Below the pieces are notes generated by a model that did no database searches, was not told where the DNA came from, and worked only from the letters and a program-made list of their open reading frames with translations. The translations under genes and the position numbers were made by a program. DNA of 64,000 nt from a virus, in the IMG/VR virus record IMGVR_UViG_3300044742_000102; one strand, given 5' to 3'. This document shows, one piece after another, positions 20,176 to 55,023 of this stretch (within the stretch, counting starts at the first letter, position 1; every line of letters begins with the position of its first letter).

Positions 20176-20306
20176 GGCAATTCTCCTGCTTCTACTGTAA
20201 GGATAACTGACTTAGGGTATTCACGCATAGTATCATATGCATGTCTAATGTCAGTAGTCATCACACGACACACACACCATACGAGAATACGAAGTAAATA
20301 GTCATA

Positions 20307-21221: not shown

Positions 21222-21265
21222 CTAATCCTCATCGTACGGATGAACGATGACTTCAATCAATCGCA

Positions 21266-36929: not shown

Positions 36930-37689
36930 AGCTGCACAGATATTCCGTGATATCTTTTCCGGTGGGCAGGGATAGCCGAACTGCATTGTGAAGTGTGCTT
37001 GCCAACTGATCGGCAACCTGCTGACCACTTGTGTCCATGTCAAGAAGAATGTAAACCCCTGATCGTATGCGCTCGAACTGTAGTAGGTTGCTGATACTCC
37101 CGACTCCGGTACTGCTCGTAATAGCATCCATCCCCCATTGGGACAGCAGATATGCGTCCAACTCTCCTTCGGTGATAACTGTTGGGCTTCCGCTGGGATT
37201 GGGTCTAACACATACACTTGATTGGCCTTTCGGTATTAGGTATTTGACTTCATCGGGGTCACAGTAGCGTTCATCTCTTCTGAGCTTGTATCCGTGGAAC
37301 TCTCCGTTGTACCAGAGGGGGATGACCAAGTGCTCTCCTGTATGGCCGAATTTGAATCTGCTACACGAATACTCCGTGAAACCACGTGAATAAAACCACT
37401 CTTTTCTAGCCTGTCTGCGGCCTGTAAGAAGTGTTGCATTGCTAAGAAGGCAGAATCGGTAGCCTTCGTCCCGGCTGGGACCACGATGTGTATGCGTGAT
37501 GGAAGCAATCCGTTTGGCTTCCGTAACCATCTGGGCATAGTTGTCACCAATCCACTCCTTTAATTGCTCTTGTGTAATGTACCCACATCGACTGAAACAG
37601 AACGCACCACCATCATTGTATACTGCACAGGATGGGTTGTGGTCGTTATGCTCTGGGTTTGGACAGCGAATCGTTGTGTACGCGGTCAT
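36877..37689 (-). CDS. DNA primase (zinc finger + TOPRIM)
   Basis: CPNPEHNDHNPSC...C..C zinc motif. TOPRIM motifs EGELDA and DMDTSG. Confidence 0.75.
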   Translation of the reverse strand: MTAYTTIRCPNPEHNDHNPSCAVYNDGGAFCFSRCGYITQEQLKEWIGDNYAQMVTEAKRIASITHTHRGPSRDEGYRFCLLSNATLLTGRRQARKEWFYSRGFTEYSCSRFKFGHTGEHLVIPLWYNGEFHGYKLRRDERYCDPDEVKYLIPKGQSSVCVRPNPSGSPTVITEGELDAYLLSQWGMDAITSSTGVGSISNLLQFERIRSGVYILLDMDTSGQQVADQLASTLHNAVRLSLPTGKDITEYLCSYGEDERGRALRDLLRNQ

Positions 37690-45578: not shown

Positions 45579-45860
45579 TTAGTCGTCCGACACGTATCGA
45601 ATACCCAGAATGTAGTCTCTGGCCGTGTCGAGTAGATCGGGATCATCTTGGAGCATACCCAACCCCGAATTGCAGGTAACACATAGTAAACCGCGAACTG
45701 CTCCTGAGTGGTGGTCGTGGTCTACAACGAGCCTCTGGTCAGATCGATCACAGATAGCACATCGTCCTCTTTGGGCCGCATACATCGCGTTCCACACATC
45801 AAGAGTGATACCGTATTTCCTTCTTAGGTCTCTGTCTTTACGCTCAGTAAAGTCTAGCAT
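45579..45860 (-). CDS. endonuclease VII-family (HNH-like) nuclease
   Basis: CAICD...VVDHDHHSGAVRGLLCVTCNSGLG. A paralogue of gene 16588..16896. Confidence 0.75.
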   Translation of the reverse strand: MLDFTERKDRDLRRKYGITLDVWNAMYAAQRGRCAICDRSDQRLVVDHDHHSGAVRGLLCVTCNSGLGMLQDDPDLLDTARDYILGIRYVSDD

Positions 45861-45983: not shown

Positions 45984-46007
45984 GGGGAGGGGGATCAGGG
46001 GGAGGGG
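45984..46007 (+). other. four-tract G-run (potential G-quadruplex)
   Basis: GGGGAGGGGGATCAGGGGGAGGGG. Confidence 0.5.
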
Positions 46008-46015
46008 TTAAACCA

Positions 46016-46035
46016 CGTAGCTCTTTAGAGCTACG
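46016..46035. repeat. 9-bp-arm palindrome
   Basis: CGTAGCTCT-tt-AGAGCTACG. Confidence 0.8.
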
Positions 46036-46040
46036 ATACA

Positions 46041-46098
46041 ACAGAACGAACAGAACGAGTAACGAACGATAGTGAGTTATGAGTGATGTGAGTGATGT
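46041..46098 (+). repeat. two sets of tandem 9-mers (iteron-like)
   Basis: ACAGAACGA twice plus a degenerate GTAACGAACGA, then GAGTGATGT twice preceded by a degenerate GTGAGTTAT. Confidence 0.7.
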
Positions 46099-46144
46099 TG
46101 TATTCAATATTGACAAACGATTCTCCTAATCTGCCCCTCTGTGT

Positions 46145-46225
46145 GTAGTAACGCGGCCTGAGCCGCTACTACGGGGCATATTAGTAGGTAGTTGTAACGC
46201 AACTCTGTCAGTTGCTAACAACTAC
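46145..46225 (+). ncRNA. two strong hairpins, candidate structured sRNA or leader ending at the terminator at 46266-46291
   Basis: GTAGTA-GCGGC-ctga-GCCGC-TACTAC (46145-46172). GTAGTTGT..GCAACT-ctgtc-AGTTGC..ACAACTAC (46188-46225). Preceded by TTGACAAAC at 46110, but with no good -10 element. Confidence 0.3.
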
Positions 46226-46265
46226 AATATACTACATAATCTATTCTCGGCACCAATAAAAACAA

Positions 46266-46291
46266 AGCCGTGGACATCACGGCTATGTTTT
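46266..46291. terminator. intrinsic terminator-like hairpin (A-run upstream, T-run downstream)
   Basis: AGCCGTG-gacat-CACGGCT, flanked by AAAAACAA and ATGTTTT. Confidence 0.55.
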
Positions 46292-46366
46292 CCTTGTTAC
46301 CTCGAATAGATTATATACTCTATGTATATACGTATAATCCAATTATGTGAAGGGGGGTGGTTATCG

Positions 46367-46510
46367 ATGCCTTTACGTGATTGTTCGAAGCTGAGTGGGA
46401 AGGCTAAGAAAGATTGTATATCAGACAATATCTCACGGGAACACAAAGCAGGTAAACCACACAAACAAGCCATAGCCATAGGTATGTCAACTGGCAGAAA
46501 GAAGAAGTAG
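46367..46510 (+). CDS. small basic protein (DUF6496-like KQAIAIG motif)
   Basis: AAGGGGGG RBS. Translates as MPLRDCSKLSGKAKKDCISDNISREHKAGKPHKQAIAIGMSTGRKKK. Confidence 0.5.
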   Translation: MPLRDCSKLSGKAKKDCISDNISREHKAGKPHKQAIAIGMSTGRKKK

Positions 46511-46612
46511 ATGGACATATTCACGAACTTAACAATAACTGATTTCGTTGCTATGCTTGTGATCGTTCTACTGATCGTAGCTGTAATTTACTTTGTACGT
46601 AGAGCATTCTAG
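46511..46612 (+). CDS. 33-aa TM micro-protein
   Basis: The ATG abuts the upstream TAG. Translates as MDIFTNLTITDFVAMLVIVLLIVAVIYFVRRAF. Confidence 0.4.
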   Translation: MDIFTNLTITDFVAMLVIVLLIVAVIYFVRRAF

Positions 46613-46621
46613 GAGGAACCC

Positions 46622-46678
46622 GTGTGTGAATGCGAAGTATGCACATGCTGCTCAGGCTGTGCATGTAAACGGAAGTAG
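46622..46678 (+). CDS. 18-aa Cys-rich micro-ORF
   Basis: AGGAGG RBS, 5 nt, then GTG. Translates as (M)CECEVCTCCSGCACKRK, with 8 Cys in 18 residues. Confidence 0.35.
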   Translation: MCECEVCTCCSGCACKRK

Positions 46679-46696
46679 ACCTGTACTAACGGACAC

Positions 46697-46725
46697 TTGA
46701 CAAACACGTATCAATATGATACAAT
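46697..46725 (+). promoter_or_regulatory. sigma70-type promoter (TTGACA, 17-nt spacer, TACAAT) heading the tRNA island
   Basis: aCTTGACAAACacgtatcaatatgaTACAATgta. Confidence 0.75.
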
Positions 46726-46810
46726 GTATACAAGTTCATAAAACGCGGTCCTGAGCATGACCACTACGTTCCTCTCACTATCATACGGGGACATAAAAAC
46801 TGCTCAACGT

Positions 46811-46882
46811 GGGGGTTTAGTTTACTTGGGAAAACCATTGCTTTGCACGCAGTAGTACGGGGTCCGAATCCCCGAACCTCCA
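46811..46882 (+). tRNA. tRNA-Ala(TGC)
   Basis: Hand-folded. Acceptor GGGGGTT/AACCTCC, anticodon loop TTTGCAC, T arm CGGGG-TCCGAAT-CCCCG. Confidence 0.75.
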
Positions 46883-46980
46883 CCCGTGACTGGCTGACTC
46901 ACGTTAATAATCAGTTCCGTGACTTGGGGACACGTACCCATGCCCAACCGTTTGCTGGTGTCGGTGAATAACCAACACAC

Positions 46981-47061
46981 GTGTCTGATGCGGGTGGACC
47001 CGCAGGGTGACTGTAAATCATCTGCATTGTGACAATGGGAGTTCGATTCTCCCCGGACACA
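46981..47061 (+). tRNA. tRNA-Tyr(GTA), long variable arm
   Basis: Acceptor GTGTCTG/CGGACAC, loop CTGTAAA, T arm GGGAG-TTCGATT-CTCCC. Confidence 0.75.
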
Positions 47062-47066
47062 CCCAC

Positions 47067-47140
47067 GCATCCATAAGACAATGGAAGTCTAGCGGACTTT
47101 TAATCCGTGAGTTTAGGTTCGATCCCTGATGGATGTACCA
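47067..47140 (+). tRNA. tRNA-Lys(TTT), CCA encoded
   Basis: Acceptor GCATCCA/TGGATGT, loop CTTTTAA, T loop TTCGATC. Confidence 0.75.
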
Positions 47141-47141
47141 A

Positions 47142-47214
47142 GCCCGTGTATTTCGACTGGCAGAATGTCATCTCGACATGATGAAGGATAGAGGTTCGAA
47201 TCCTCTCACGGGCA
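47142..47214 (+). tRNA. tRNA-Val(GAC) with unusual C33
   Basis: Acceptor GCCCGTG/CACGGGC, anticodon stem TCATC/GATGA, loop TCGACAT, T arm AGAGG-TTCGAAT-CCTCT. Confidence 0.6.
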
Positions 47215-47216
47215 CC

Positions 47217-47287
47217 CAGCATGTAGCATATTGGAAATGCACTGGACTGTGAATCCAGCTATGTGGGTTCGATTCTCACCTTGCTGA
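47217..47287 (+). tRNA. tRNA-His(GTG)
   Basis: Acceptor CAGCATG/CTTGCTG (one T-T mismatch), loop CTGTGAA, T arm GTGGG-TTCGATT-CTCAC. Confidence 0.7.
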
Positions 47288-47291
47288 CCCT

Positions 47292-47366
47292 GCCCCATTA
47301 GCTTAACGGAAGAGCTTGATCGTTCTAAGGTCTAAGGTGTGGGTTCAAATCCTACATGGGGTGCCA
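47292..47366 (+). tRNA. tRNA-Arg(TCT), CCA encoded
   Basis: Acceptor GCCCCAT/ATGGGGT, loop GTTCTAA, T arm GTGGG-TTCAAAT-CCTAC. Confidence 0.7.
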
Positions 47367-47367
47367 C

Positions 47368-47396
47368 TTGACAAACAATGAAAGATGTGATATAAT
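47368..47396 (+). promoter_or_regulatory. perfect sigma70-consensus promoter (TTGACA, 17-nt spacer, TATAAT)
   Basis: aCTTGACAAACaatgaaagatgtgaTATAATgtgg, immediately after tRNA-Arg. Confidence 0.8.
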
Positions 47397-47493
47397 GTGG
47401 CTCACAGCATTGATACTCTGGTTGATGGTGTTTGGAGCTATTGTGTGGATGTTGTGGGAACTGTATCATCCAGACTGATAAGGATGTGGTATA

Positions 47494-47571
47494 ATGATTA
47501 TCTGGCCGGGTGGACTTGTTGGATTGATTCTTATCATATTGATTGTGCTGTTCCTCACAGGGAACTGCTAG
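47494..47571 (+). CDS. 25-aa hydrophobic micro-ORF
   Basis: AGGA 9 nt upstream of the ATG. Translates as MIIWPGGLVGLILIILIVLFLTGNC. Confidence 0.3.
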   Translation: MIIWPGGLVGLILIILIVLFLTGNC

Positions 47572-47576
47572 AAATA

Positions 47577-47592
47577 GGTTTTCACGAAAACC
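47577..47592. repeat. GTTTTC-NN-GAAAAC family palindrome
   Basis: GGTTTTCacGAAAACC, followed by CTAGAAAG and then the ATG at 47608. Confidence 0.75.
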
Positions 47593-47607
47593 TAGAAAGC
47601 CTGTAGT

Positions 47608-47823
47608 ATGCTACAAATAAACATCTCAGAGGATGCACTAGAATCTCTCCTGTTTGATCGTGATATGACAGGCAATGCTATACGTGATTTTGCCAAACTT
47701 GCTGAGATTCTGATTCCAGTGCTCAAACGGGTGGGTGATGCGTGGGATTTAAACTATGATGCAAACTACATTGAAGAGGAACTCGAAAAAGCCATTGATA
47801 TTATTGTGAATTGGTGCGGATAA
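47608..47823 (+). CDS. hypothetical protein
   Basis: 71-aa acidic ORF. Confidence 0.55.
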   Translation: MLQINISEDALESLLFDRDMTGNAIRDFAKLAEILIPVLKRVGDAWDLNYDANYIEEELEKAIDIIVNWCG

Positions 47824-48068
47824 TGCTGCGTGTAACGGTTGAACTGATTCCGGGTGGATACCTTAGTAATAAGCGAAACATACGTGAACTGGAAATCACC
47901 AACACATCTGTTTCAAGTATCGTTGGTCACCCATCTACATACAAGGTCACATCAAAGGGTGACTACATCGACACCATCGAGGATTGGGATAGCAATAGAC
48001 CAGTCGAGGAACTTGTAGCTGAGGCATTGTTTAGTCTGCGTGATAGACCTCTTAGAGATTATTACTAA
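47823..48068 (+). CDS. hypothetical protein
   Basis: TAATG coupling to the upstream gene. Translates as MLRVTVELIPGGYLSNKRNIRELEITN.... Confidence 0.5.
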   Translation: MLRVTVELIPGGYLSNKRNIRELEITNTSVSSIVGHPSTYKVTSKGDYIDTIEDWDSNRPVEELVAEALFSLRDRPLRDYY

Positions 48069-48072
48069 TAAA

Positions 48073-48147
48073 CGCTCTTGTGCCAGCCGGTAGTTGGCAG
48101 GAAGCTTATATCTTCTTCATGAGCAGGTTCAACTCCTGAAAGAGCGA
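48073..48147 (+). tRNA. tRNA-Ile(TAT)
   Basis: Acceptor CGCTCTT/AAGAGCG, D arm GCCA-gccggtagt-TGGC, loop CTTATAT. Confidence 0.65.
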
Positions 48148-48149
48148 CC

Positions 48150-48239
48150 GGGACTGTCTCAAATGCGGGAAGCCTAGTACCTACGATCTGACTGTACAGC
48201 AGAGAGCGGGGAAGTGCCAGCGTTAGGTTTGCGGTCCCT
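48150..48239 (+). other. 90-nt tRNA-sized structured spacer without a canonical T arm
   Basis: A 7-bp closing stem GGGACTG/CGGTCCC resembles an acceptor stem, but I could not build a T loop or a cloverleaf. Confidence 0.3.
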
Positions 48240-48242
48240 CAT

Positions 48243-48313
48243 GCCCGGTTAGCATAATGGTAAGGCAACAGTGTTACATACTGTGGATAGAGGTTCAATT
48301 CCTCTACGGGGCA
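48243..48313 (+). tRNA. tRNA-Val(TAC)
   Basis: Acceptor GCCCGGT/ACGGGGC (one mismatch), anticodon stem ACAGT/ACTGT, loop GTTACAT. Confidence 0.7.
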
Positions 48314-48384
48314 CAGGGCTATATCACCAGCCCTCTTAGGGATCGCACATGCGGAGCCAGTGCGTTATCAACGCTCCGCAACAT

Positions 48385-48455
48385 GCTCTGTTATGCTAGT
48401 GGAAGGCAAACATTCTTTCAAAGTGTTGGCACGGGTTCGATCCCCGTACAGAGTA
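48385..48455 (+). tRNA. tRNA-Glu(TTC)
   Basis: Acceptor GCTCTGT/ACAGAGT, loop CTTTCAA, T arm ACGGG-TTCGATC-CCCGT. Confidence 0.75.
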
Positions 48456-48499
48456 CCGCATGGTTGTAGGTGACTGCGCTATAGAGTGGAACCTATAGT

Positions 48500-48519
48500 A
48501 AGTTTCACGAATGAAACTT
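48500..48519. repeat. hairpin with AGTTTC/GAAACT arms (same family as the palindromes)
   Basis: AAGTTTCA-cgaa-TGAAACTT. Confidence 0.7.
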
Positions 48520-48528
48520 TCTTATCAT

Positions 48529-48601
48529 CTGGCATTAGGGAAGCGGTCATCCCCCCGCGTTTGGAATGCGGTAGCCGGTAGTTCGAATCTACCATGCCAG
48601 A
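48529..48601 (+). tRNA. tRNA-Pro(TGG)
   Basis: Acceptor CTGGCAT/ATGCCAG, loop TTTGGAA, T arm GGTAG-TTCGAAT-CTACC. Confidence 0.8.
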
Positions 48602-48605
48602 CCCT

Positions 48606-48681
48606 CGAACCATCTTCTAGTGGATCAGGAAGCCTGTCTCTCACACAGGCAACACGAGTTCAAATCTCGTTGGTTCGACCA
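48606..48681 (+). tRNA. tRNA-Glu(CTC), CCA encoded
   Basis: Acceptor CGAACCA/TGGTTCG, anticodon stem CCTGT/ACAGG, loop CTCTCAC. Confidence 0.75.
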
Positions 48682-48682
48682 A

Positions 48683-48756
48683 CTCCCTATAGTGAAGTGG
48701 CCTATCACGCGGCCCTGTCAAGGCTGAGAACACGGGTTCGAATCCCGTTGGGGGGA
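48683..48756 (+). tRNA. tRNA-Asp(GTC)
   Basis: Acceptor CTCCCTA/TGGGGGG (two G-U pairs), D arm GTGA..TCAC, loop CTGTCAA. Confidence 0.7.
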
Positions 48757-48897
48757 CTAACATGCGTAAGTGTGCAACTCCGAATGGTAAACGATCATCA
48801 CTGAATGAATATGCTACACATGCTCGTAGTGGTAGACTACAGATGAAGCAACAGCATTGGTCATCGGTACGTAGAATAACGAAAGACTGGTTGAAGC

Positions 48898-49137
48898 ATG
48901 AGAAAGCGTATTGGTAGCTACGAACTAGAAACGATGCGAAAATATAAAGGCCGTGCGTTTGCTATTACTAAGATCGTAGGTGAGCACAAAGAAACACGTG
49001 TACCGTGGAGATTCTGGATATGTTTCACCTATCTTGTAAAACGGCTAACATATCAGCATTCGCACCATACTTTCGAAAGCTATAAATGGCTGGCAATACC
49101 ATTTATAACAATTCAGTATACATACACTCCTTCATAG
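48898..49137 (+). CDS. hypothetical protein (doubtful)
   Basis: 79-aa ORF whose last 10 nt overlap tRNA-Phe. Confidence 0.35.
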   Translation: MRKRIGSYELETMRKYKGRAFAITKIVGEHKETRVPWRFWICFTYLVKRLTYQHSHHTFESYKWLAIPFITIQYTYTPS

Positions 49138-49198
49138 CTCAGAAGTAGAGCGTCCGGTTGAAGCCCGGTGTGGATCGGAGCGTTACCGGTTGAGGGAA
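49128..49198 (+). tRNA. tRNA-Phe(GAA) with non-canonical T loop
   Basis: Acceptor TCCTTCA/TGAGGGA, D arm AGCTCAGAAGTAGAGC, loop TTGAAGC, T arm ATCGG-AGCGTTA-CCGGT. Confidence 0.6.
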
Positions 49199-49202
49199 CC
49201 CT

Positions 49203-49277
49203 ATCCTCATAGTTCAAGGGATAGAACGAGGGCTTGCGAAGCCTTTGGTCGCAGTTCGAATCTGCGTGAGGATGCCA
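49203..49277 (+). tRNA. tRNA-Arg(GCG), CCA encoded
   Basis: Acceptor ATCCTCA/TGAGGAT, loop TTGCGAA, T arm CGCAG-TTCGAAT-CTGCG. Confidence 0.7.
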
Positions 49278-49278
49278 T

Positions 49279-49350
49279 GCCGCTATAACATAAAGGAGAG
49301 TGTTTCGGACTTCGAATCCGAGAGTCGTGGTTCGATTCCACGTAGCGGTA
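49279..49350 (+). tRNA. tRNA-Arg(TCG)
   Basis: Acceptor GCCGCTA/TAGCGGT, anticodon stem TCGGA/TCCGA, loop CTTCGAA. Confidence 0.75.
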
Positions 49351-49354
49351 CCTT

Positions 49355-49425
49355 ACCTTTGTGGTGTAATGGTAACACAACTGTTTTGTAATCAGTTACT
49401 GCGGGTTCGATTCCTGCCATTGGTG
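49355..49425 (+). tRNA. tRNA-Thr(TGT) with two T-T mismatches in the acceptor stem
   Basis: Acceptor ACCTTTG/CATTGGT, D arm GTGT-aatggta-ACAC, loop TTTGTAA. Confidence 0.6.
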
Positions 49426-49430
49426 CCCTT

Positions 49431-49455
49431 GCTAGTATCAGATACTCGTACTAGC
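49431..49455. repeat. hairpin following the CCTTGCTAG motif
   Basis: GCTAGTA...TACTAGC arms with an inner palindrome AGTATCaGATACT. Confidence 0.65.
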
Positions 49456-49622
49456 TCGTGAGTGTAAGAGTGTCCAGCCACTTGTCAATCATGACAGGTA
49501 AGGAGTACCCCACACGACAGTCTCACGAAGATCATAGATCGACTGTCTCACTCCACAACAGACTGATCCACCATATGTGGAAACAGATCATTGACCGTTA
49601 GACCAACTAGCGGTCATTGCTT

Positions 49623-49696
49623 GCGGGATTGAGTTACCGGTAAACTGCGACTCTTCCAAAGTTGATAAGCCGGTTCAATTCCGGCATCCCGCACCA
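49623..49696 (+). tRNA. tRNA-Gly(TCC), CCA encoded
   Basis: Acceptor GCGGGAT/ATCCCGC, loop CTTCCAA, T arm GCCGG-TTCAATT-CCGGC. Confidence 0.8.
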
Positions 49697-49712
49697 TTAG
49701 AATGGAGTCCTG

Positions 49713-50036
49713 ATGGACATTGACACTACATTAATCATACAGGGTGGAGTATTCGGTGCCGTTGGTGTACTCACATCAGTCAAGCTATTGACTAGCTATT
49801 TCAAGAAGTTCTTTGATCTACGTGGCCGATGGGTCATGGGTATGACCCTGCTCTTGTCTGCATACGCGGTATCGACTGCGATACTATCAGTCTACTGGTC
49901 CATCGTAGGTCTCGTGTTCATGGGAGTATACCTAACCGTATTGGTGGCTACAACAGCAGATGCCTACTTTCAGCAAGAAGAAGCTACGCAGGTACAACGC
50001 GCTGCGGAGCATCCTGATAAGGTTCGTTTACGATAG
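49713..50036 (+). CDS. membrane protein, 3 TM segments (holin-like candidate)
   Basis: GGAG RBS. Hydrophobic stretches GGVFGAVGVLTSVKLL, MGMTLLLSAYAVSTAILSVYW and IVGLVFMGVYLTVLVA. Confidence 0.55.
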   Translation: MDIDTTLIIQGGVFGAVGVLTSVKLLTSYFKKFFDLRGRWVMGMTLLLSAYAVSTAILSVYWSIVGLVFMGVYLTVLVATTADAYFQQEEATQVQRAAEHPDKVRLR

Positions 50037-50106
50037 GCAGCAATAAGCTAGCGGTAAACTTCTACATTGCCAATGTAGACTCAGGAGTTCGATCCTCCTT
50101 TGCTGC
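50037..50106 (+). tRNA. tRNA-Gly(GCC)
   Basis: Acceptor GCAGCAA/TTGCTGC, anticodon stem CTACA/TGTAG, loop TTGCCAA. Confidence 0.75.
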
Positions 50107-50153
50107 ACTTTGCGGTTGATGGTAACGCGCAATCGCGGTGGAACCATCATCAT

Positions 50154-50234
50154 GTACTTGTGGTGGAATGGCATACACGATAGCCTTAGAAGCTATTCTC
50201 GCAAGGGGTGCAGGTTCGAATCCTGTCAGGTACA
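50154..50234 (+). tRNA. tRNA-Leu(TAG), long variable arm
   Basis: Acceptor GTACTTG/CAGGTAC, anticodon stem ATAGC/GCTAT, loop CTTAGAA. Confidence 0.75.
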
Positions 50235-50302
50235 CAAAGAGGTTGGTGGCAACGCTCACTAATATGTCTGTGAGTTACCCTCTCTAAAAACCACCCATCT
50301 AT

Positions 50303-50375
50303 GCGGGTATGGTGAAACGGCAAACACAACTGGTTTAAGCCCAGCACGCTACAGGTTCGAATCCTGTTACCCGTA
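50303..50375 (+). tRNA. 73-nt type-I tRNA carrying the Leu anticodon TAA (short variable loop)
   Basis: Acceptor GCGGGTA/TACCCGT, loop TTTAAGC, 5-nt variable loop ACGCT, T arm ACAGG-TTCGAAT-CCTGT, discriminator A73. Confidence 0.6.
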
Positions 50376-50380
50376 CCCAT

Positions 50381-50461
50381 GTGCGATTGGTGGAATGGCA
50401 TACACGCAAGTCTGAGAGGCTTGTCTCGCAAGAGATGGGAGTTCGAGTCTCCTGTCGCACA
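50381..50461 (+). tRNA. tRNA-Leu(GAG), long variable arm
   Basis: Acceptor GTGCGAT/GTCGCAC, loop CTGAGAG, T arm GGGAG-TTCGAGT-CTCCT. Confidence 0.75.
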
Positions 50462-50480
50462 CTAGTTAGAAAGTAGCAAT

Positions 50481-50687
50481 ATGACATCAAGTATCGGTCG
50501 GATCGTACACTACGTAGACTATGATGGTCGGCACATTGCAGCAATGATTGTGCAGCTTGCTGATGAAGATACGAATGAGGAACGACTCGCTATTTTTGAT
50601 CCATACTACAACACAACAATGTGGAGAGATGCATCACAAGATGCAGAATGTGGACTAACAACATGGCATGAGCCAGAAAGGGTATAA
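50481..50687 (+). CDS. hypothetical protein
   Basis: 68 aa, preceded by the TAGAAAGTAG leader. Confidence 0.5.
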   Translation: MTSSIGRIVHYVDYDGRHIAAMIVQLADEDTNEERLAIFDPYYNTTMWRDASQDAECGLTTWHEPERV

Positions 50688-50689
50688 CA

Positions 50690-50884
50690 ATGCACATGAC
50701 ATCAGCGCAGGCAGAAGCAATCGTAGAAGCGTTTCGTGTAGCAGCGATCACAACACTGACACACCTAACTCGTAGGTTCCTCTTCACTGTAGTCAGTACA
50801 CCGGGTGTGACATGGAACACCGCACAGGCTGCATACCTGAATGCACGAGACATTCACGCAGCGGAGCCGTTCGTAGAAACATAA
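50690..50884 (+). CDS. hypothetical protein
   Basis: 64-aa ORF. Confidence 0.45.
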   Translation: MHMTSAQAEAIVEAFRVAAITTLTHLTRRFLFTVVSTPGVTWNTAQAAYLNARDIHAAEPFVET

Positions 50885-50887
50885 AAT

Positions 50888-50968
50888 GGAAGGTTGGCAG
50901 AGTGGTAATGCAGCGGTTTGCTAAACCGTAGGGGGCAACCTCCAGGGGTTCGATTCCTCTACTTTCCG
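50888..50968 (+). tRNA. tRNA-Ser(GCT), long variable arm
   Basis: Acceptor GGAAGGT/ACTTTCC, loop TTGCTAA, variable arm AGGGGGCAACCTCC. Confidence 0.75.
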
Positions 50969-51003
50969 CTTGGTCCTGAGCAGGACTATAAAAGGCTCAA
51001 CAT

Positions 51004-51075
51004 GTCTCCGTAGCACAATGGTACTGCTACTGGCTCTTACCCAGCAGAATACTGGTTCGAATCCAGTCGGGGACA
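51004..51075 (+). tRNA. tRNA-Lys(CTT)
   Basis: Acceptor GTCTCCG/CGGGGAC, loop CTCTTAC, T arm ACTGG-TTCGAAT-CCAGT. Confidence 0.7.
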
Positions 51076-51098
51076 CCCCCCTAGAAAGTAGTTACACC

Positions 51099-51404
51099 AT
51101 GCAATCAGGCATTGACTACATTCAGGAACAGATCGAAAGAGGGAATACAGGCAACTTTGCGAGTAATCAATTTACGAATGAAGAAGCCCTACAATTCTTT
51201 CAAACCATCGAACAGCTAGGTGGTCATGTGACTATACCAGAAATATATAAAGATCACGATGGACCCGGTGAAGACTATGCTGACTCGTGTGAGGTACACC
51301 TGTATACGGACACATTGTTTGGTGAAATTATGATTACAATAATCCCACACAGCCCAGATGATATGGAGTTCAAGACCGATCTTGTCTGGTTGTGGTGGGA
51401 CTAA
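51099..51404 (+). CDS. hypothetical acidic protein
   Basis: I chose the ATG at 51099, after the TAGAAAGTAG leader. The upstream part of the tracked ORF covers two tRNAs. Confidence 0.5.
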   Translation: MQSGIDYIQEQIERGNTGNFASNQFTNEEALQFFQTIEQLGGHVTIPEIYKDHDGPGEDYADSCEVHLYTDTLFGEIMITIIPHSPDDMEFKTDLVWLWWD

Positions 51405-51407
51405 TAT

Positions 51408-51481
51408 TCCAGAGTCTTCTAAGGGTAGGAAGGCTGTCTTTGAAACAGCTAATGAATGTTCGAATCATTCCTTTGGAACCA
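51408..51481 (+). tRNA. tRNA-Gln(TTG), CCA encoded
   Basis: Acceptor TCCAGAG/CTTTGGA (U1-A72), anticodon stem GCTGT/ACAGC, loop CTTTGAA. Confidence 0.8.
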
Positions 51482-51499
51482 TCCTAGAAAGAGATATAC

Positions 51500-51799
51500 A
51501 TGGTTAATTATACTGGTGTGTGGTTGTGTAACGATGCCGGTGACTGTTCAATGGTGGAGCGTAGCGATGATAATTGCTATGTTGCTGTAGAAGTTGGTGT
51601 TGTTAAGGATACTATGCCATACTACAACAGCGTGAAGCTCATTGTAGCATTGCCAAATGTCCTTGCTGCATCTCCTACGTTTATGAATATATTTCAACAA
51701 GAGTTTGTAGAAGCAACGGCATACCTACACCGCTATGCTGTAGAAAAGCTAGAAAGTAGTTCTCATGCAGATCATACCGCTTCTTCGAACATTTCTTGA
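51500..51799 (+). CDS. hypothetical protein
   Basis: 99 aa, preceded by the CCTAGAAAG leader. Confidence 0.5.
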   Translation: MVNYTGVWLCNDAGDCSMVERSDDNCYVAVEVGVVKDTMPYYNSVKLIVALPNVLAASPTFMNIFQQEFVEATAYLHRYAVEKLESSSHADHTASSNIS

Positions 51800-51824
51800 C
51801 AACAACAGAGATGTGAAGGTTGTT

Positions 51825-52181
51825 ATGTTCGAGATGGGTACACGCGAGTACGAGATATTCGAAGAGGAATTGGATAGTATGCGCTACTACCCACGCACGC
51901 ATGAACAATTATCATTTTGTGGAGTACCTATTGTGCGTACGGGTGATCCCGGTATATGTGCAAAAATTCAACAGTGGATCATTATTTCGGACTCTGCTAA
52001 TGGTAGGCAAGCTGTCTCTGAAACAGCCAATCTAGGTCCGACTCCTAGGTCCGAAGCAGACCAGTTTATTATAGATCACTATAGTAAGCTGGAGTGTAGA
52101 ACAAACTATGGTGAAACTCGTGGTCGTAGAGATATTCGTACCTACAACCATTGGGACTATGCAGACTCAATTGGGGAGTAA
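51825..52181 (+). CDS. hypothetical ORF that reads through tRNA-Gln(CTG) (3' extent doubtful)
   Basis: MFEMGTREYEIFEEELD.... The frame stays open across the tRNA at 51986-52056 and stops inside the next tRNA. Confidence 0.35.
   Translation: MFEMGTREYEIFEEELDSMRYYPRTHEQLSFCGVPIVRTGDPGICAKIQQWIIISDSANGRQAVSETANLGPTPRSEADQFIIDHYSKLECRTNYGETRGRRDIRTYNHWDYADSIGE
51986..52056 (+). tRNA. tRNA-Gln(CTG)
   Basis: Acceptor TTCGGAC/GTCCGAA, anticodon stem GCTGT/ACAGC, loop CTCTGAA, T arm CTAGG-TCCGACT-CCTAG. A paralogue of the tRNA at 51408. Confidence 0.7.
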
Positions 52182-52244
52182 CGCAAATGGTTCGCGGCAT
52201 CTCTGATAAGGATGTATTCGAAGGTCCGATTCCTTCATTCCCCA
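52173..52244 (+). tRNA. tRNA-Ile(GAT)
   Basis: Acceptor GGGGAGT/ATTCCCC, loop CTGATAA, T arm GAAGG-TCCGATT-CCTTC. Confidence 0.7.
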
Positions 52245-52251
52245 CCGGTTT

Positions 52252-52292
52252 GGCAGTATTACCTCTAGTTAGCTTTTCTAGTGAAAACTGCC
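52252..52292. repeat. hairpin GGCAGT...ACTGCC enclosing TTTTC-tagt-GAAAA
   Basis: 6-bp outer arms with an inner motif of the palindrome family. Confidence 0.6.
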
Positions 52293-52297
52293 TATAT

Positions 52298-52368
52298 TCC
52301 CCGGTCGTATAAAGATATTACGCGACTCTGTTAAAGTCATTATAGAGGTTTGATTCCTCTCTGGGGAG
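52298..52368 (+). tRNA. tRNA-Asn(GTT)
   Basis: Acceptor TCCCCGG/CTGGGGA, loop CTGTTAA, T arm AGAGG-TTTGATT-CCTCT. Confidence 0.7.
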
Positions 52369-52370
52369 CC

Positions 52371-52433
52371 TTGCTAGGTTGTAGTGTCATGTAAAATGTG
52401 GGTCATCGGCACACACCCCACATTACCTAGCAA
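52371..52433. repeat. long two-tier hairpin following CCTTGCTAG
   Basis: Outer arms TTGCTAGGT/ACCTAGCAA (9 bp) and inner arms AATGTGGG/CCCACATT (8 bp). Confidence 0.75.
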
Positions 52434-52436
52434 TAT

Positions 52437-52509
52437 GTCACACTAATTCATCTGGTAGAATGCGTTCTTGGTAAGAACGATGTACTGAGTTCAAGTCTCA
52501 GGTGTGGCT
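52437..52509 (+). tRNA. tRNA-Thr(GGT)
   Basis: Acceptor GTCACAC/GTGTGGC, anticodon stem CGTTC/GAACG, loop TTGGTAA. Confidence 0.8.
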
Positions 52510-52518
52510 CCGCGATCA

Positions 52519-52572
52519 TGGGGAACCAAGTGGCTAGGATATCATAGGTAGATGCGAGTTCTACTTCCCTAT
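52519..52572 (+). other. 54-nt mini-helix / D-arm-less tRNA-like element
   Basis: Acceptor-like TGGGGAA/TTCCCTA plus a T-arm-like GTAGA-tgcgagt-TCTAC. Too short for a cloverleaf. Confidence 0.3.
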
Positions 52573-52583
52573 GGTGCGTGCTT

Positions 52584-52654
52584 GTCGTTGTAGTTTAGTG
52601 GAAGAACAAGTGTTTCGTAAACACTGAGCAGCAGTTCGAATCTGCTCTTCGGCT
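52584..52654 (+). tRNA. tRNA-Thr(CGT) with two T-T mismatches in the acceptor stem
   Basis: Acceptor GTCGTTG/CTTCGGC, anticodon stem AGTGT/ACACT, loop TTCGTAA. Confidence 0.6.
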
Positions 52655-52694
52655 CATGTAGTGAGTCGGATTTATTCGGCTCTTAGGAGGTTAC

Positions 52695-52955
52695 GTGGAT
52701 ATTCAGTCATTGCTTGGTAGAATGGGTGCTGGTGGTGGACAAGCTGGTGGTGGTATGCCACCCGGAATGGGTGGTGGTGGACAGGGTATGGAAGCTATCA
52801 TGCCATTCCTGATGATGCTACTAAAGCAGATGTTAGGACAGAGTGGTGCTATGCCACAGGGGCAGGCAGGACCACCGGGTATGGGTGGTGGAATGCCCTT
52901 CGCTAGTGCCCTAGGTGCTCAGGGTGGACAAGGTATGCCACCGGGAATGATGTAA
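52695..52955 (+). CDS. Gly/Met/Pro/Gln-rich low-complexity protein (GGM-repeat-like)
   Basis: AGGAGG RBS, 5 nt, then GTG. Contains MPPGMGGGGQGM, GPPGMGGGMPF and GGQGMPPGMM. Confidence 0.55.
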   Translation: MDIQSLLGRMGAGGGQAGGGMPPGMGGGGQGMEAIMPFLMMLLKQMLGQSGAMPQGQAGPPGMGGGMPFASALGAQGGQGMPPGMM

Positions 52956-52979
52956 TACACGGGGCTACGGCCCCAACAT

Positions 52980-53050
52980 ATGCCATTCGTATAACGGAAG
53001 TACAACTGATTCCAAACCAGTTAGCGCGGGTTCGACTCCTGCATGGTGTG
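52980..53050 (+). tRNA. tRNA-Trp(CCA)
   Basis: Acceptor ATGCCAT/ATGGTGT (two G-U pairs), loop TTCCAAA, T arm GCGGG-TTCGACT-CCTGC. Confidence 0.65.
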
Positions 53051-53076
53051 CCGTGGGTCCAGCCTAGGAATCTTTA

Positions 53077-53097
53077 GTGACTAGCAAAGCTAGTCAC
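53077..53097. repeat. perfect 9-bp-stem hairpin
   Basis: GTGACTAGC-aaa-GCTAGTCAC. Confidence 0.8.
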
Positions 53098-53099
53098 GC

Positions 53100-53120
53100 G
53101 GAGTCAGCCTTGCTGACTCC
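53100..53120. repeat. perfect 9-bp-stem hairpin
   Basis: GGAGTCAGC-ctt-GCTGACTCC, 2 nt after the previous hairpin. Confidence 0.8.
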
Positions 53121-53233
53121 TATGAAAGCGAACGCACTACTCTTCGTAGTAGGTGCCCCGACAGGTTCCAGTGATGAGTTGGGTGGCCGGAACAGTGCGA
53201 TATAACCACAACCAAAAAGGCATCGCACAACAT

Positions 53234-53315
53234 GGAAGAGCTAACGTTGGAGAGTGTAGCTGCCTTGAACGCAGTAGGGCTAAATGCCCAGCGGGTTCGA
53301 ATCCTGTCTCTTCCG
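53234..53315 (+). tRNA. tRNA-Ser(TGA), long variable arm
   Basis: Acceptor GGAAGAG/CTCTTCC, loop CTTGAAC, variable arm AGGGCTAAATGCCCA. Confidence 0.7.
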
Positions 53316-53452
53316 CTGTGTGCAACAAGAGGATAATGTGATTCCGTGGGCATGTACCACAGCAGGGAATCGGTACTCGGCCTCAGTGTACCTGCACCGC
53401 TACAACTGAATATGCTTGTCAGCCTGATGACACCTTGGTCGCGCTCGGTAGG

Positions 53453-53468
53453 AGTTTTCTCGAAAACT
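53453..53468. repeat. GTTTTC-NN-GAAAAC family palindrome
   Basis: AGTTTTCtcGAAAACT, overlapping a second palindrome ACTTCGAAGT (53466-53475). Confidence 0.7.
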
Positions 53469-53495
53469 TCGAAGTCACAGCCCTTCTGGCAACGA

Positions 53496-53618
53496 TGAAC
53501 CGAAGCACGTACGCTGTCAGACCGGCCAGTCAACAGCTATAGGCACGTGTCGGTAGAGCACACTACTGCCCACTGATTGTGAAATTGTGGGTTGCAGGTT
53601 CGAATCCTGTCCGGTTCT
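53496..53618 (+). other. atypical tRNA-like element / possible pseudo-tRNA
   Basis: Canonical T arm GCAGG-TTCGAAT-CCTGT (53594-53610) and a D-loop-like TCGGTAGAGCAC. The only acceptor partner (GAACCGA/CCGGTTC) lies about 120 nt away, across an inserted hairpin (CACGT...ACGTG). No 7-nt anticodon loop can be formed. Confidence 0.3.
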
Positions 53619-53623
53619 TTCGT

Positions 53624-53694
53624 GGCTCATTGATCGAGCAGTTAGATAGCTGTCTGCAAAACAGTGTACACTGGTGCAAATCCAGTATGAGCCT
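53624..53694 (+). tRNA. tRNA-Cys(GCA)
   Basis: Acceptor GGCTCAT/ATGAGCC, loop CTGCAAA, T arm ACTGG-TGCAAAT-CCAGT. Confidence 0.75.
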
Positions 53695-53696
53695 CC

Positions 53697-53716
53697 GGGG
53701 TTTTCTAGAAAACCCC
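53697..53716. repeat. GC-clamped GTTTTC-TA-GAAAAC palindrome
   Basis: GGGGTTTTCTAGAAAACCCC, a perfect 20-mer between tRNA-Cys and the next tRNA. Confidence 0.85.
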
Positions 53717-53722
53717 TTCCTT

Positions 53723-53796
53723 ATCCACGTATGCTAATTGGCAAAGCAAATAGTTTCAAAAACTGTTGAATGCGAGTTCGAATCTCGCGGTGGATA
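53723..53796 (+). tRNA. 74-nt type-I tRNA carrying the Leu anticodon CAA (short variable loop)
   Basis: Acceptor ATCCACG/GGTGGAT (6 of 7 pairs), D arm TGCT..AGCA, loop TTCAAAA, variable loop TGAAT, T arm GCGAG-TTCGAAT-CTCGC, discriminator A73. Confidence 0.6.
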
Positions 53797-53799
53797 CAT

Positions 53800-53875
53800 T
53801 GCGGTGTAGAGAAGTAGTCATCTCGCTTGGCTCATAACCAAGAAAACGTTGGTGCAAACCCAACCACCGCTACCA
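53800..53875 (+). tRNA. tRNA-Met(CAT) with a T1xT72 mismatch, CCA encoded (initiator-like or Ile2 possible)
   Basis: Acceptor TGCGGTG/CACCGCT, anticodon stem CTTGG/CCAAG, loop CTCATAA, T arm GTTGG-TGCAAAC-CCAAC. Confidence 0.65.
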
Positions 53876-53876
53876 T

Positions 53877-53948
53877 GTCTATAGAGCCAAACGGTGAGGC
53901 CGATGTTTCATACGCATCTTACACTCAGTTCGACTCTGAGTATAGACA
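53877..53948 (+). tRNA. tRNA-Met(CAT) (elongator or Ile2 type)
   Basis: Acceptor GTCTATA/TATAGAC, anticodon stem GATGT/GCATC, loop TTCATAC, T arm CTCAG-TTCGACT-CTGAG. Confidence 0.7.
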
Positions 53949-54095
53949 CCTAAGAGGGAGAGCCAGAACACCACTAGTCATAAGACTCACATTTGTTGTA
54001 GGGAAGCATCTGGCTTGCCCCTCTTATACGCTCGTAGTATTCACTACGGGCTTATTTGCGTTCCCGTAGCGTGCAAGCGCAACGAAAGGCATGAC

Positions 54096-54500
54096 ATGGC
54101 ATTACGCATTCGACACGTACTTGACAAGAACAACCTGTACGCAGTATATTTTCTAGAAACAGCACCGTGGGCACAGCTTGTGCCGTGTTTGCACCAGGCA
54201 CTCGTTGATCGCACCCATTTTGATGATGATGAGAACGAAATATCAGTGAACGAAATCCTCGGTCTGGTTGTTACAACTGATGGTATTGTACCAGCAGATG
54301 AATCACCGACCGGCATCTTTATGTGGTATGTTGATGGCAATGCTGTCAACCTGACCGACTATCACATGGAAATGGTTAAGCTCAGTTCGGCACAGTTCCA
54401 AGCAGCACAGCCACCACCAACACCACCAGAGGCAGTGACACGAGTATTCGAGCAACGTAAGGGCAAGCAGAATGGCAAATCCCAGCGAAGACCTACGTAG
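54096..54500 (+). CDS. hypothetical protein, first gene of the packaging module
   Basis: I chose the ATG at 54096, after GAAAGG (MALRIRHVLDKNN...). The tracked ORF start at 54015 lies in a structured non-coding stretch. Confidence 0.5.
   Translation: MALRIRHVLDKNNLYAVYFLETAPWAQLVPCLHQALVDRTHFDDDENEISVNEILGLVVTTDGIVPADESPTGIFMWYVDGNAVNLTDYHMEMVKLSSAQFQAAQPPPTPPEAVTRVFEQRKGKQNGKSQRRPT
54121..54159 (+). promoter_or_regulatory. promoter-like TTGACA, 18-nt spacer, TATATT, fused to TTTTCTAGAAA (inside a CDS)
   Basis: TTGACAagaacaacctgtacgcagTATATTTTCTAGAAAC. The location inside a gene makes function uncertain. Confidence 0.3.
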
Positions 54501-55023
54501 GAGACAAGCCTACGAAGACTACAAACGACTTCCACTACTCGGTATGAAGCAGAACCCGAACCAACTGTATCTCTGGTATATACAACGCTTACATGATGAT
54601 CCATCAGACAGACCCAATATTCCGACCACCAACAGGGCAACAGTCTATGAGTGGTACAAGCAGGACAGATGGGAAGAGAAGGTTGCCCTTGAAGGTATCG
54701 CAATTCTTGACCGCTCTGCTGCTACATTTGCCGACCTCAGACAGCGCGGCTATGACCAGCTTAACATGCTTATTATTGATGCTGTGGCTGGCCTAGAGAA
54801 GCTCATTAAGCCTAAGGCCGGTACGAGAATCGATCCGAAGGTACAACTCGAAGCGATTAAAACATTGCTAGACAGAGTTGGTATTAGTGCTGAGAAGGCA
54901 CAACAGAATAGGCACGTGGTTGGCACACCACAAGATACACCGATTGAGAAGGAAGTACCTGACTTTGAGGGTGATCCAGATCAGCTATATGCGTTTCTAT
55001 CGGAACAATCACGGGAGGGGTAA
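54472..55023 (+). CDS. terminase small subunit-like DNA-binding protein
   Basis: Lies upstream of TerL. The HTH-like segment TVYEWYKQDRWEEKVALE is typical of TerS N-termini. Confidence 0.5.
   Translation: MANPSEDLRRRQAYEDYKRLPLLGMKQNPNQLYLWYIQRLHDDPSDRPNIPTTNRATVYEWYKQDRWEEKVALEGIAILDRSAATFADLRQRGYDQLNMLIIDAVAGLEKLIKPKAGTRIDPKVQLEAIKTLLDRVGISAEKAQQNRHVVGTPQDTPIEKEVPDFEGDPDQLYAFLSEQSREG

Follow-up and report, generated by a model that had tools for sequence, protein, structure and literature searches.

We found that two short tRNA genes with the leucine anticodons UAA and CAA, which lie in the 64,000-nucleotide stretch of phage DNA analysed here (the window), most probably encode functional, LeuRS-charged type-I leucine tRNAs that supply UUR decoding. 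Short-armed leucine tRNAs of this sort are real but ordinary, and represent a widespread natural class. The preliminary description of the window started from the premise that bacterial tRNA-Leu is a type-II tRNA with a long variable arm. This premise does not hold in general: type-I forms occur in Actinomycetota chromosomes, in phages and in tRNA arrays, and the form from Streptomyces coelicolor is leucylated (PMC6614811).

Structure of the two short tRNAs

Both genes stand in a tRNA island, together with two leucine tRNAs of the long-armed kind:

46810–53950, + strand: tRNA island, 35 tRNA genes in one orientation over 7.1 kb (ARAGORN and Rfam)
50154–50234, + strand: type-II tRNA-Leu(UAG) with a 12–13-nt variable arm (ARAGORN, Rfam)
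50303–50375, + strand: type-I tRNA with anticodon UAA at 50336–50338 (Rfam 59.1 bits; ARAGORN)
50381–50461, + strand: type-II tRNA-Leu(GAG) with a 12–13-nt variable arm
53723–53796, + strand: type-I tRNA with anticodon CAA at 53757–53759 (Rfam 50.7 bits; ARAGORN)

The Rfam model RF00005, whose gathering score is 29, matched exactly 50303–50375 (E = 3e-10) and 53723–53796 (E = 6.5e-8), both E-values being window-wide. ARAGORN called tRNA-Leu(taa) at 50302–50379 and tRNA-Leu(caa) at 53723–53797, and its longer call for the UAA tRNA consists of an optional eighth acceptor pair (T50302–A50375) and a trailing CCCA. The UAA and CAA tRNAs are 73 and 74 nt long, respectively, with 7-nt anticodon loops containing U33 (TTTAAGC and TTCAAAA), 5-nt variable loops including nucleotide 48 (ACGCT and TGAAT, the latter counted as 4 nt by ARAGORN), and the discriminator A73. 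Both programs thereby bear out the type-I architecture given in the preliminary description, and also the long variable arm that it gave to the leucine tRNAs at 50154 (TAG) and 50381 (GAG).

Neither short tRNA has the long variable arm (at least 10 nt, forming a stem-loop) of a canonical type-II tRNA. No such arm is hidden, because each gene, bounded by complementary acceptor strands, is only 73–74 nt long and the next tRNA begins at 50381, which is 2 nt past the end of the ARAGORN call for the UAA tRNA. Neither ARAGORN nor Rfam offered a different anticodon register. In single-sequence folding, the cloverleaf lay 2.0 and 3.6 kcal/mol above the minimum free energy (MFE) structures, in which the D/anticodon region was mis-paired in both tRNAs. 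It is usual for tRNAs that the cloverleaf is not the MFE fold. MFE folding is uninformative here, and the comparative evidence outweighs it.

In the UAA tRNA, we observed a G1·U72 pair, an A27·C43 mismatch, and G37 beside A36. Its D arm, TGGTGAAACGGCAAACAC, comprises G9, a 3-bp GUG/CAC stem and a 10-nt loop; written out as GTG-A-AACGGCAA-A-CAC, it has one nucleotide fewer before GG than the loop of the type-I family described below. The CAA tRNA has A37, a G7·G66 mismatch, and the D arm TGC-T-AATTGGCAA-A-GCA, in which the loop AATTGGCAA is near the family consensus, yet U13–A22 can pair.

The tRNA island and the phage genome

Three further features of the region are relevant to the nature of the island:

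45579–45860, − strand: Endonuclease VII / HNH-type gene (PF02945, E = 9e-24), directly upstream of the tRNA island
49128–49198, + strand: tRNA-Phe(GAA), found by Rfam only
52173–52244, + strand: tRNA-Ile(GAT), found by Rfam only

The count of 35 tRNA genes is made up of 33 called by ARAGORN and the two found by Rfam only. Long tRNA arrays (L-arrays) are recognized by at least 20 co-oriented tRNA genes at a density of at least 2 per kb, often with an HNH-type endonuclease (PMC4758250, PMC8421152), and homing endonucleases have been associated with tRNA arrays (PMC8421152). With 35 tRNAs in 7.1 kb of the + strand and the Endonuclease VII gene at 45579–45860, the island has all of these features, and is the phage version of a long tRNA array. 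The array of a relative, L450, starts with a gene of the same endonuclease family. The island adjoins the terminase in a lytic-type phage genome, and contains a probable tRNA remnant at 53547–53618.

The genome encodes a family-A DNA polymerase, a class II ribonucleotide reductase, a DnaB-type helicase, a large terminase, a portal, and an SLT plus NlpC/P60 protein. The source of the window is an uncultured tailed phage. Neither megablast of the tRNA region nor tblastn of the portal found a close relative among 50,697 phage records, and PolA and TerL searches of phage records returned distant matches only. A 42% match of PolA to Nitrolancea hollandica is no more than a weak hint at the host. 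No aaRS domain, as a phage-encoded LeuRS would have, was found among the scanned window ORFs of at least 500 aa.

The CAA tRNA belongs to a widespread type-I family

When the CAA tRNA was compared with phage records by blastn, it gave an ungapped match to the annotated tRNA-Leu of vibriophage KVP40 and its relatives. The type-I tRNA-Leu of KVP40 and of Synechococcus phage S-CRM01 share the D arm YCCC-AATTGGCAG-AGGR, and this D arm followed by a YAA anticodon was used as the pattern for a family scan. At least 120 stretches of IMG/VR carried the pattern. Nearly every one of those listed formed a 74-nt cloverleaf with A73 and a 5-nt loop whose last nucleotide is U, and the contigs that bear them also have short tRNAs with other Leu anticodons (TAG, GAG, CAG, AAG). 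The same pattern gave at least 120 matches in genomes taken one per prokaryotic species. Among the matches listed, the overwhelming majority were isolated, single-copy genes with a UAA or CAA anticodon in Actinomycetota chromosomes, including those of Mycobacterium, Nocardia, Gordonia, Rhodococcus, Corynebacterium and Arthrobacter, as well as Microbacteriaceae and others; cyanobacterial matches lay within long tRNA arrays. The chromosomal gene looks like the native UUR-reading tRNA-Leu of Actinomycetota. Among cultured phages, a consensus query matched 367 records, from groups that include mycobacteriophages and phages of Streptomyces, Gordonia, Lactobacillus, Pseudomonas, Erwinia, Salmonella and Escherichia, and the matched genes were annotated "tRNA-Leu".

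The 235 sequences collected for the family are remarkably uniform in size, with 213 of 74 nt, 20 of 75 nt and two of 73 nt. In an alignment of 89 non-redundant members (A2), the identity and tertiary set U8, A14, A15–U48, G18G19, A20a, T54, C56, A58 and A73 was invariant in 89/89, and U8, U48, T54, C56, A58 and A73 lie outside the search pattern. The family cloverleaf was paired in 98.7% of the cells, and double-sided changes occurred in 18/20 pairs, far above shuffled and slid controls.

A covariance model (R1) was built from this alignment and run with filters off over positions 46000–55000. Among the 35 tRNAs, it ranked the CAA tRNA first (69.6 bits) and the UAA tRNA second (53.3 bits), followed by Val-GAC (49.7 bits) and Lys-CTT (48.3 bits). 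The margin over the best non-Leu tRNA is 20 bits for the CAA tRNA, but only 3.6 bits for the UAA tRNA. By its sequence, the CAA tRNA clearly belongs to the widespread type-I tRNA-Leu(UUR) family, whereas membership of the UAA tRNA appears borderline in a family defined by its D arm (a 3-bp stem, a non-Watson-Crick 13·22 and the loop AAUUGGCAG). The type-I family to which the CAA tRNA belongs is old and horizontally mobile, and many phages have it in common with long tRNA arrays and the chromosomes of Actinomycetota.

More generally, the rule "bacterial tRNA-Leu has a long variable arm" is a poor filter: type-I genes are single-copy across Actinomycetota and common in phages and mobile arrays, and screens that use the rule would give many false alarms. 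The literature on phage type-I tRNA-Leu is thin. In the literature searched, we came across no explicit description of the phage form beyond a passing one-line remark about a mycobacterial tRNA cluster (PMC6582537).

The UAA tRNA has a type-II-like body

The D-arm architecture of the UAA tRNA (U8 G9, a 3-bp GUG/CAC stem, R13·A22 and the loop AAYGGCAN) is that of the two type-II Leu tRNAs of the phage, and is absent from all other tRNAs of the window, including the CAA tRNA. A pattern made from this D arm and a UAA anticodon matched 118 IMG/VR tRNAs, nearly all of which were 80–85 nt long, that is, type II. Within the window, the closest relative of its body is the Leu(UAG) tRNA at 50154–50234, which is 79% identical in the D arm and 94% in the T arm. 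Another alignment (A4) showed the Leu tRNAs of the phage group, type I and type II, to be collinear, with a gap of 8 nt in the variable region as the one exception. As we read this alignment, the acceptor stem of the UAA tRNA (GCGGGTA/TACCCGT) is one compensatory pair apart from that of the type-II Leu-TAG tRNA of relative L452 (GCAGGTA/TACCTGT). Most likely, the UAA tRNA arose from a type-II phage tRNA-Leu through loss of the long arm. Its observed occurrence was limited to the window phage and one homologue with anticodon UAG, in L450.

LeuRS identity elements

[quoted passage not shown] Both short tRNAs contain U8–A14, A15–U48, G18G19, A20a, T54–A58, C56 and A73, and, judged from these nucleotides, both carry the E. 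coli-type LeuRS identity set. A15–U48 and A73 are present also in several non-Leu tRNAs of the phage, and are alone no proof of identity.

The charging of a natural type-I tRNALeu has been demonstrated experimentally in S. coelicolor, where one type-I tRNALeu(CAA) with a 5-nt variable loop exists beside four type-II tRNA-Leu, and a single LeuRS leucylates both kinds (Fan et al., Nucleic Acids Res 2019, PMC6614811). Leucylation of the type-I tRNA requires U8–A14 and a loop that includes nucleotide 48 and is no shorter than 5 nt, and a type-II tRNALeu(UAA) engineered with a 5-nt loop kept 14% of its kcat/Km (PMC6614811). Not every LeuRS accepts a type-I tRNALeu: the enzyme of E. coli failed to charge that of S. 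coelicolor (PMC6614811).

We also scored the tRNAs with home-made isotype profile-HMMs, trained on about 700 phage tRNAs with anticodons masked. These crude models were right for many window tRNAs, and ambiguous for the two short ones (Gln 24.3, Leu 23.1 and His 22.7 for one; Glu 21.4 and Arg 19.6 for the other). The acceptor pair 3–70 is G3–C70 in the UAA tRNA and C3–G70 in the CAA tRNA. An Ala-identity recoding tRNA was rejected as a candidate, as there is no G3·U70 in either, and SerRS charging was rejected since the discriminator is A73 and no long arm is present. A derivative of tRNA-Phe, with GAA mutated at position 34, was rejected as well: position 34 is U or C, and the D and T arms differ. 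The D arm of the phage tRNA-Phe at 49128–49198 (TAGCTCAGAAGTAGAGC) and its T arm are different from those of the UAA tRNA, and only the 3' half of the anticodon loop, AAGC, is shared.

Meaning of the UUA and UUG codons

The preliminary description had proposed a count of UUA/UUG usage. In 52 window ORFs (14,283 codons), TTA and TTG made up 6% and 12% of the Leu-family codons, respectively, or 18% for UUR. In the RNR, five of the nine TTR codons (positions 17, 145, 426, 535 and 585) fall at columns that have Leu in 94–98 of 98 distant homologues (about 48% identity). The overall Leu fraction in the RNR was 0.66 for TTA and 0.73 for TTG, in line with the 0.46–0.72 of CTN codons, and the Phe fraction was about 0.01. 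In PolA, distant homologues have aliphatic residues at the TTR positions, and near relatives have Leu at most of them. TerL contains too few TTR codons for such an estimate, with one TTG site that aligned to Phe in three relatives. On the evidence of these alignments, UUR is leucine in the phage. Since UUR codons stand at conserved Leu sites, a mis-charging tRNA would damage those sites. The codon test gives the meaning of UUR, and does not tell whether the phage or the host tRNA reads it.

We propose that the two genes would be transcribed with the rest of the 35-gene array and then processed, and that the host LeuRS would charge both short tRNAs with leucine. During infection, the CAA tRNA would then decode UUG, and the UAA tRNA would decode UUA and UUG, as leucine, complementing the two type-II tRNAs that are predicted to read CUN. 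Expression, leucylation by the host LeuRS, and use by the ribosome are thus expected for both tRNAs. The island can be annotated as having four leucine tRNAs that cover CUN and UUR, with no sign of recoding.

Conservation in relatives and alternative readings

Relatives of the window phage were collected through the terminase (TerL identity 50–67%); a metagenome scan with a TerL profile gave 80 loci, among which only L128 had the tRNAs in question. Every relative that reaches the region has a type-I Leu tRNA in the slot just upstream of tRNA-Met, mostly following tRNA-Cys. The anticodon in this slot is CAA in L003, L005, L128, L449, L452 and L454, whereas L450 has CAG and UAA, and L453 has CAA and UAA. 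Four lineage copies of the CAA tRNA had 76/80 stem cells paired, with compensatory changes in 14/20 pairs. In L450, a type-I tRNA located after tRNA-Gly(GCC) has the acceptor stem, the D arm and the A27 mismatch of the window UAA tRNA, with the anticodon UAG. By our by-eye reading of alignment A4, the identity between this tRNA and the UAA tRNA is about 75%, and four pairs have changed in a compensatory manner. For Leu-TAG, the window, L005 and L452 have a type-II tRNA, and L450 and L454 have a type-I tRNA. As far as these sequences tell, the type-I and type-II forms are interchangeable, and the anticodon drifts only within the Leu set.

The alternation of forms leads to the question of why the arm is short. 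One conjecture, which we consider unlikely, is that type I is the preferred "portable" tRNA-Leu of phages and mobile arrays, retained even by phages whose hosts, such as E. coli and Vibrio, are not known to have other than type-II tRNA-Leu, and chargeable by diverse LeuRS while escaping host factors that recognize the long arm (defence nucleases, toxins, tRNA turnover), and that arms were lost and regained on the same bodies in the lineage. In a stricter form, the two tRNAs would be leucylated and used, but the short arm would have been selected mainly for escape from factors acting on host type-II tRNA-Leu, such as cleaving or modifying defence enzymes or tRNA shut-off, making them a defence-resistant replacement and not a codon supply. 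The switching of Leu(UAG) between type I and type II among close relatives is consistent with this, as is the use of the Anabaena array tRNAs under translational stress (PMC8421152). Type-I Leu tRNAs also occur in phages of E. coli and Vibrio, and if these hosts have only type-II tRNA-Leu, the short form would not have been simply copied from them. On the other hand, nothing in the window points to a system that targets the variable arm, and we know of no defence system that does so for tRNA-Leu. The window phage keeps two type-II Leu tRNAs beside the type-I ones, and with the family native and single-copy in Actinomycetota chromosomes, plain ancestry suffices. Selection for escape is quite unlikely as the main reason for the short arm.

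The compensatory changes bear on another reading, that the two genes are decaying, non-functional relics or inert decoys in a mobile array, with UUA and UUG read only by host tRNAs. Long arrays do hold dead members, as illustrated by the three of 26 Anabaena operon tRNAs that were undetected (PMC8421152), and the probable remnant at 53547–53618 could be one in this island. The low share of UUR among Leu codons would also suit relics, as would the single stem mismatch in each tRNA (A27·C43 and G7·G66) and the absence of the UAA tRNA from relative L005. However, G7·G66 is itself conserved in five lineages, unlike what decay would produce. Both tRNAs score well above the Rfam threshold with their tertiary and identity nucleotides intact, the CAA tRNA has been kept before tRNA-Met in six relatives with its pairing preserved by compensation, and the body of the UAA tRNA has apparently been kept likewise in L450. 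We judge the relic reading to be very unlikely.

The confinement of anticodon switching to Leu codons fits a synthetase that is blind to the anticodon. Of the enzymes of this kind, AlaRS is excluded because there is no G3·U70, and SerRS because there is no long arm and position 73 is A. Charging by a different synthetase (PheRS through the NAA anticodons, for example, or AlaRS), with UUA and UUG partly recoded in infection, might be suspected from a type-I shape with Leu anticodons, from the Phe-like 3' half of the UAA tRNA loop (..AAGC), from isotype HMMs that did not single out Leu, and from the yeast mitochondrial Leu-anticodon tRNAs charged with Thr or Ala (PMC7609411), but it is extremely improbable given the G34 requirement of PheRS (PMC9976931), D and T arms that resemble those of phage tRNA-Leu and not tRNA-Phe, the Leu found at TTA/TTG sites in invariant RNR columns and in PolA relatives, and the occurrence of UAG, CAG, UAA or CAA on the same tRNA bodies among relatives, a variation tolerable only to an enzyme that ignores the anticodon. 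Of the four outcomes listed in the preliminary description, that of an unusual LeuRS substrate is the one retained; another synthetase, a decoy and a non-functional gene are disfavoured by leucine at UUR sites, by the compensatory changes, and by the Leu-only anticodon switches.

Comparison with known systems

Type-I leucine tRNAs are found in several well-known phages. Vibrio phage KVP40 has tRNA-Leu-1 (CAA) and tRNA-Leu-2 (UAA), which are adjacent type-I tRNAs of 77 nt with CCA located directly after tRNA-Cys, and the window CAA tRNA also follows tRNA-Cys. S-CRM01 has a 74-nt type-I tRNA-Leu(UAA) whose anticodon loop and 3' stem, TTTAAGC-CCAGC, are also those of the window UAA tRNA. A Felix-O1-like phage of E. 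coli (Ounavirinae) has a tRNA-Leu(UAG) and a tRNA-Leu(CAA) of 77/78 nt, and a T5-like phage has a 77-nt tRNA-Leu(UAA). Across the E. coli phages vB_EcoM_3HA14 and EscoHU1, KVP40 and S-CRM01, the tRNA-Leu genes are 74–78 nt long (with CCA where encoded), and have type-I architecture and A73 as in the window. KVP40, S-CRM01 and the coliphages are unrelated to the window phage, with no protein or DNA similarity beyond the tRNAs. Their records make no comment on the missing long arm, and we found no charging data for the type-I tRNA-Leu of KVP40, S-CRM01, vB_EcoM_3HA14 or EscoHU1. Although the E. coli LeuRS reportedly fails to charge the type-I tRNA of Streptomyces, type-I Leu tRNAs are present in KVP40 and in coliphages of the T5-like and Felix-O1-like kinds. 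Whether, and how well, the LeuRS of their hosts charges these tRNAs has a bearing on how LeuRS and tRNA co-evolve and on designing orthogonal tRNA pairs.

The chromosomal tRNA-Leu(UAA) and tRNA-Leu(CAA) of Actinomycetota are 74 nt long, with the D arm YCCC-AAUUGGCAG-AGGR, a 5-nt loop ending in U48, and A73. These genes are single in chromosomes, whereas those of the window lie in an array. The window CAA tRNA differs from them in having U13–A22 instead of C13·A22, A21 instead of G21, and the G7·G66 mismatch, and the window UAA tRNA differs in its type-II-like D arm.

The trn operon of Anabaena sp. PCC 7120 resembles the window island in its dozens of co-oriented tRNAs with an HNH-type endonuclease alongside. 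Twenty-three of its 26 tRNAs were detected, aminoacylated in vivo and present in polysomes, and the other three were not detected (PMC8421152). By ARAGORN, all four Leu-anticodon tRNAs of this operon (pCC7120delta) are 75–78 nt long, that is, type I. With 23 of 26 members charged and four of type I with Leu anticodons, at least one type-I Leu tRNA must be charged in Anabaena. In contrast to the window island, which belongs to a phage and mixes type-I and type-II Leu tRNAs, the Anabaena operon lies on a plasmid in a cell, and translational stress induces it.

Leucylation without a long arm is known also from animal mitochondrial tRNALeu(UUR) and from a minimalist E. coli tRNALeu that lacks the variable arm (Larkin et al. 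2002, reviewed in PMC9976931). The identity of these arm-less tRNAs lies in A73, A14 and the D/T-loop tertiary pairs (PMC9976931). They differ from the window tRNAs, as the mitochondrial tRNALeu(UUR) has a dedicated LeuRS and a floppy structure, and the arm-less E. coli constructs are artificial. The S. coelicolor tRNALeu(CAA) has the variable loop ACAGC with C48, whereas the window tRNAs and their family have U48 with A15. Moreover, A73 is not needed in Streptomyces, where the UAA isoacceptor (bldA) is of type II, and the window tRNAs are encoded by a phage. The window UAA tRNA is the natural counterpart of the UAA-SVL construct engineered by Fan et al.

A conserved mismatch in the acceptor stem of the type-I tRNA-Leu(CAA)

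In the type-I tRNA-Leu(CAA) at 53723-53796, the acceptor stem has a G7.G66 mismatch at its base. The same mismatch is found in the corresponding tRNAs of four relatives retrieved through their terminase (L003, L128, L449, and L452), so that its carriers make up five diverged lineages, the window included. Position 7/66 is normally paired in two other relatives, L005 and L454. Conservation of the mismatch itself suggests that it is tolerated or even selected in this tRNA.

Protein genes at the array and in the window

An endonuclease gene lies immediately upstream of the tRNA island, and a gene of the same PF02945 family also opens the array of another relative, L450 (L450:533-922). The endonuclease gene is a likely mobility factor of the tRNA array. 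Two relatives carry a further protein gene within their arrays.

45579-45860, minus strand, Endonuclease VII / HNH-type gene (PF02945, E 9e-24)
L450:4798-6351, Ro60/TROVE + vWA gene within the tRNA array
L452:4129-5691, Ro60/TROVE + vWA gene within the tRNA array
52695-52955, plus strand, 86-aa ORF within the tRNA island, low-complexity peptide
37646-39814, minus strand, phage PolA, listed as a GTG ORF

Unlike L450 and L452, the window has no Ro60/TROVE + vWA gene, and no match to Y-RNA was seen in it. The product of the 86-aa ORF is rich in Gly, Met, and Pro, with GGMPPGMGGGG-type repeats, and gave no match in Pfam. PolA is 719 aa long in the protein database, which probably puts its true start 3 codons into the GTG ORF as listed. 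Its best named relative is the Nitrolancea hollandica DNA polymerase (42% identity), a match that hints weakly at a Chloroflexota-associated lineage.

The stretch at about 14000-24000 differs compositionally from the remaining window: its GC skew is strongly negative (about -0.25 to -0.30), its G+C is lower (0.43-0.45), and it is densely filled with small minus-strand ORFs.

Other tRNA genes of the island

Seven further plus-strand sequences are of note.

53547-53618, tRNA-like sequence, weak on the type-I tRNA-Leu(UUR) family model (16.4 bits)
49128-49198, tRNA-Phe(GAA) (Rfam, 37.8 bits)
46981, Tyr tRNA (ARAGORN)
48073-48149, tRNA-Ile-TAT, anticodon UAU (ARAGORN)
52437, tRNA-Thr-GGT (ARAGORN)
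53234, tRNA-Ser-TGA (ARAGORN)
53877, second Met tRNA (ARAGORN)

The tRNA-like sequence, directly upstream of tRNA-Cys, has exactly the T arm of the type-II tRNA-Leu-TAG (GCAGGTTCGAATCCTGT), and is possibly a tRNA remnant. The tRNA-Phe(GAA), detected solely by Rfam and missed by ARAGORN, has AGCGTTA as its T loop, where TTCRANY is usual. Like that of the type-I tRNA-Leu(UAA), its anticodon loop (TTGAAGC) contains G37-C38. The five ARAGORN tRNAs listed fall below the Rfam tRNA gathering score. The D arm of the Tyr tRNA is odd in that its loop has 4 nt. A UAU anticodon on tRNA-Ile is unusual in bacteria, where AUA is normally decoded by a lysidine-modified CAU tRNA. The tRNA-Ile(UAU) is kept in L005, L450, and L454, and has been reported from mycobacterial tRNA clusters (PMC6582537).
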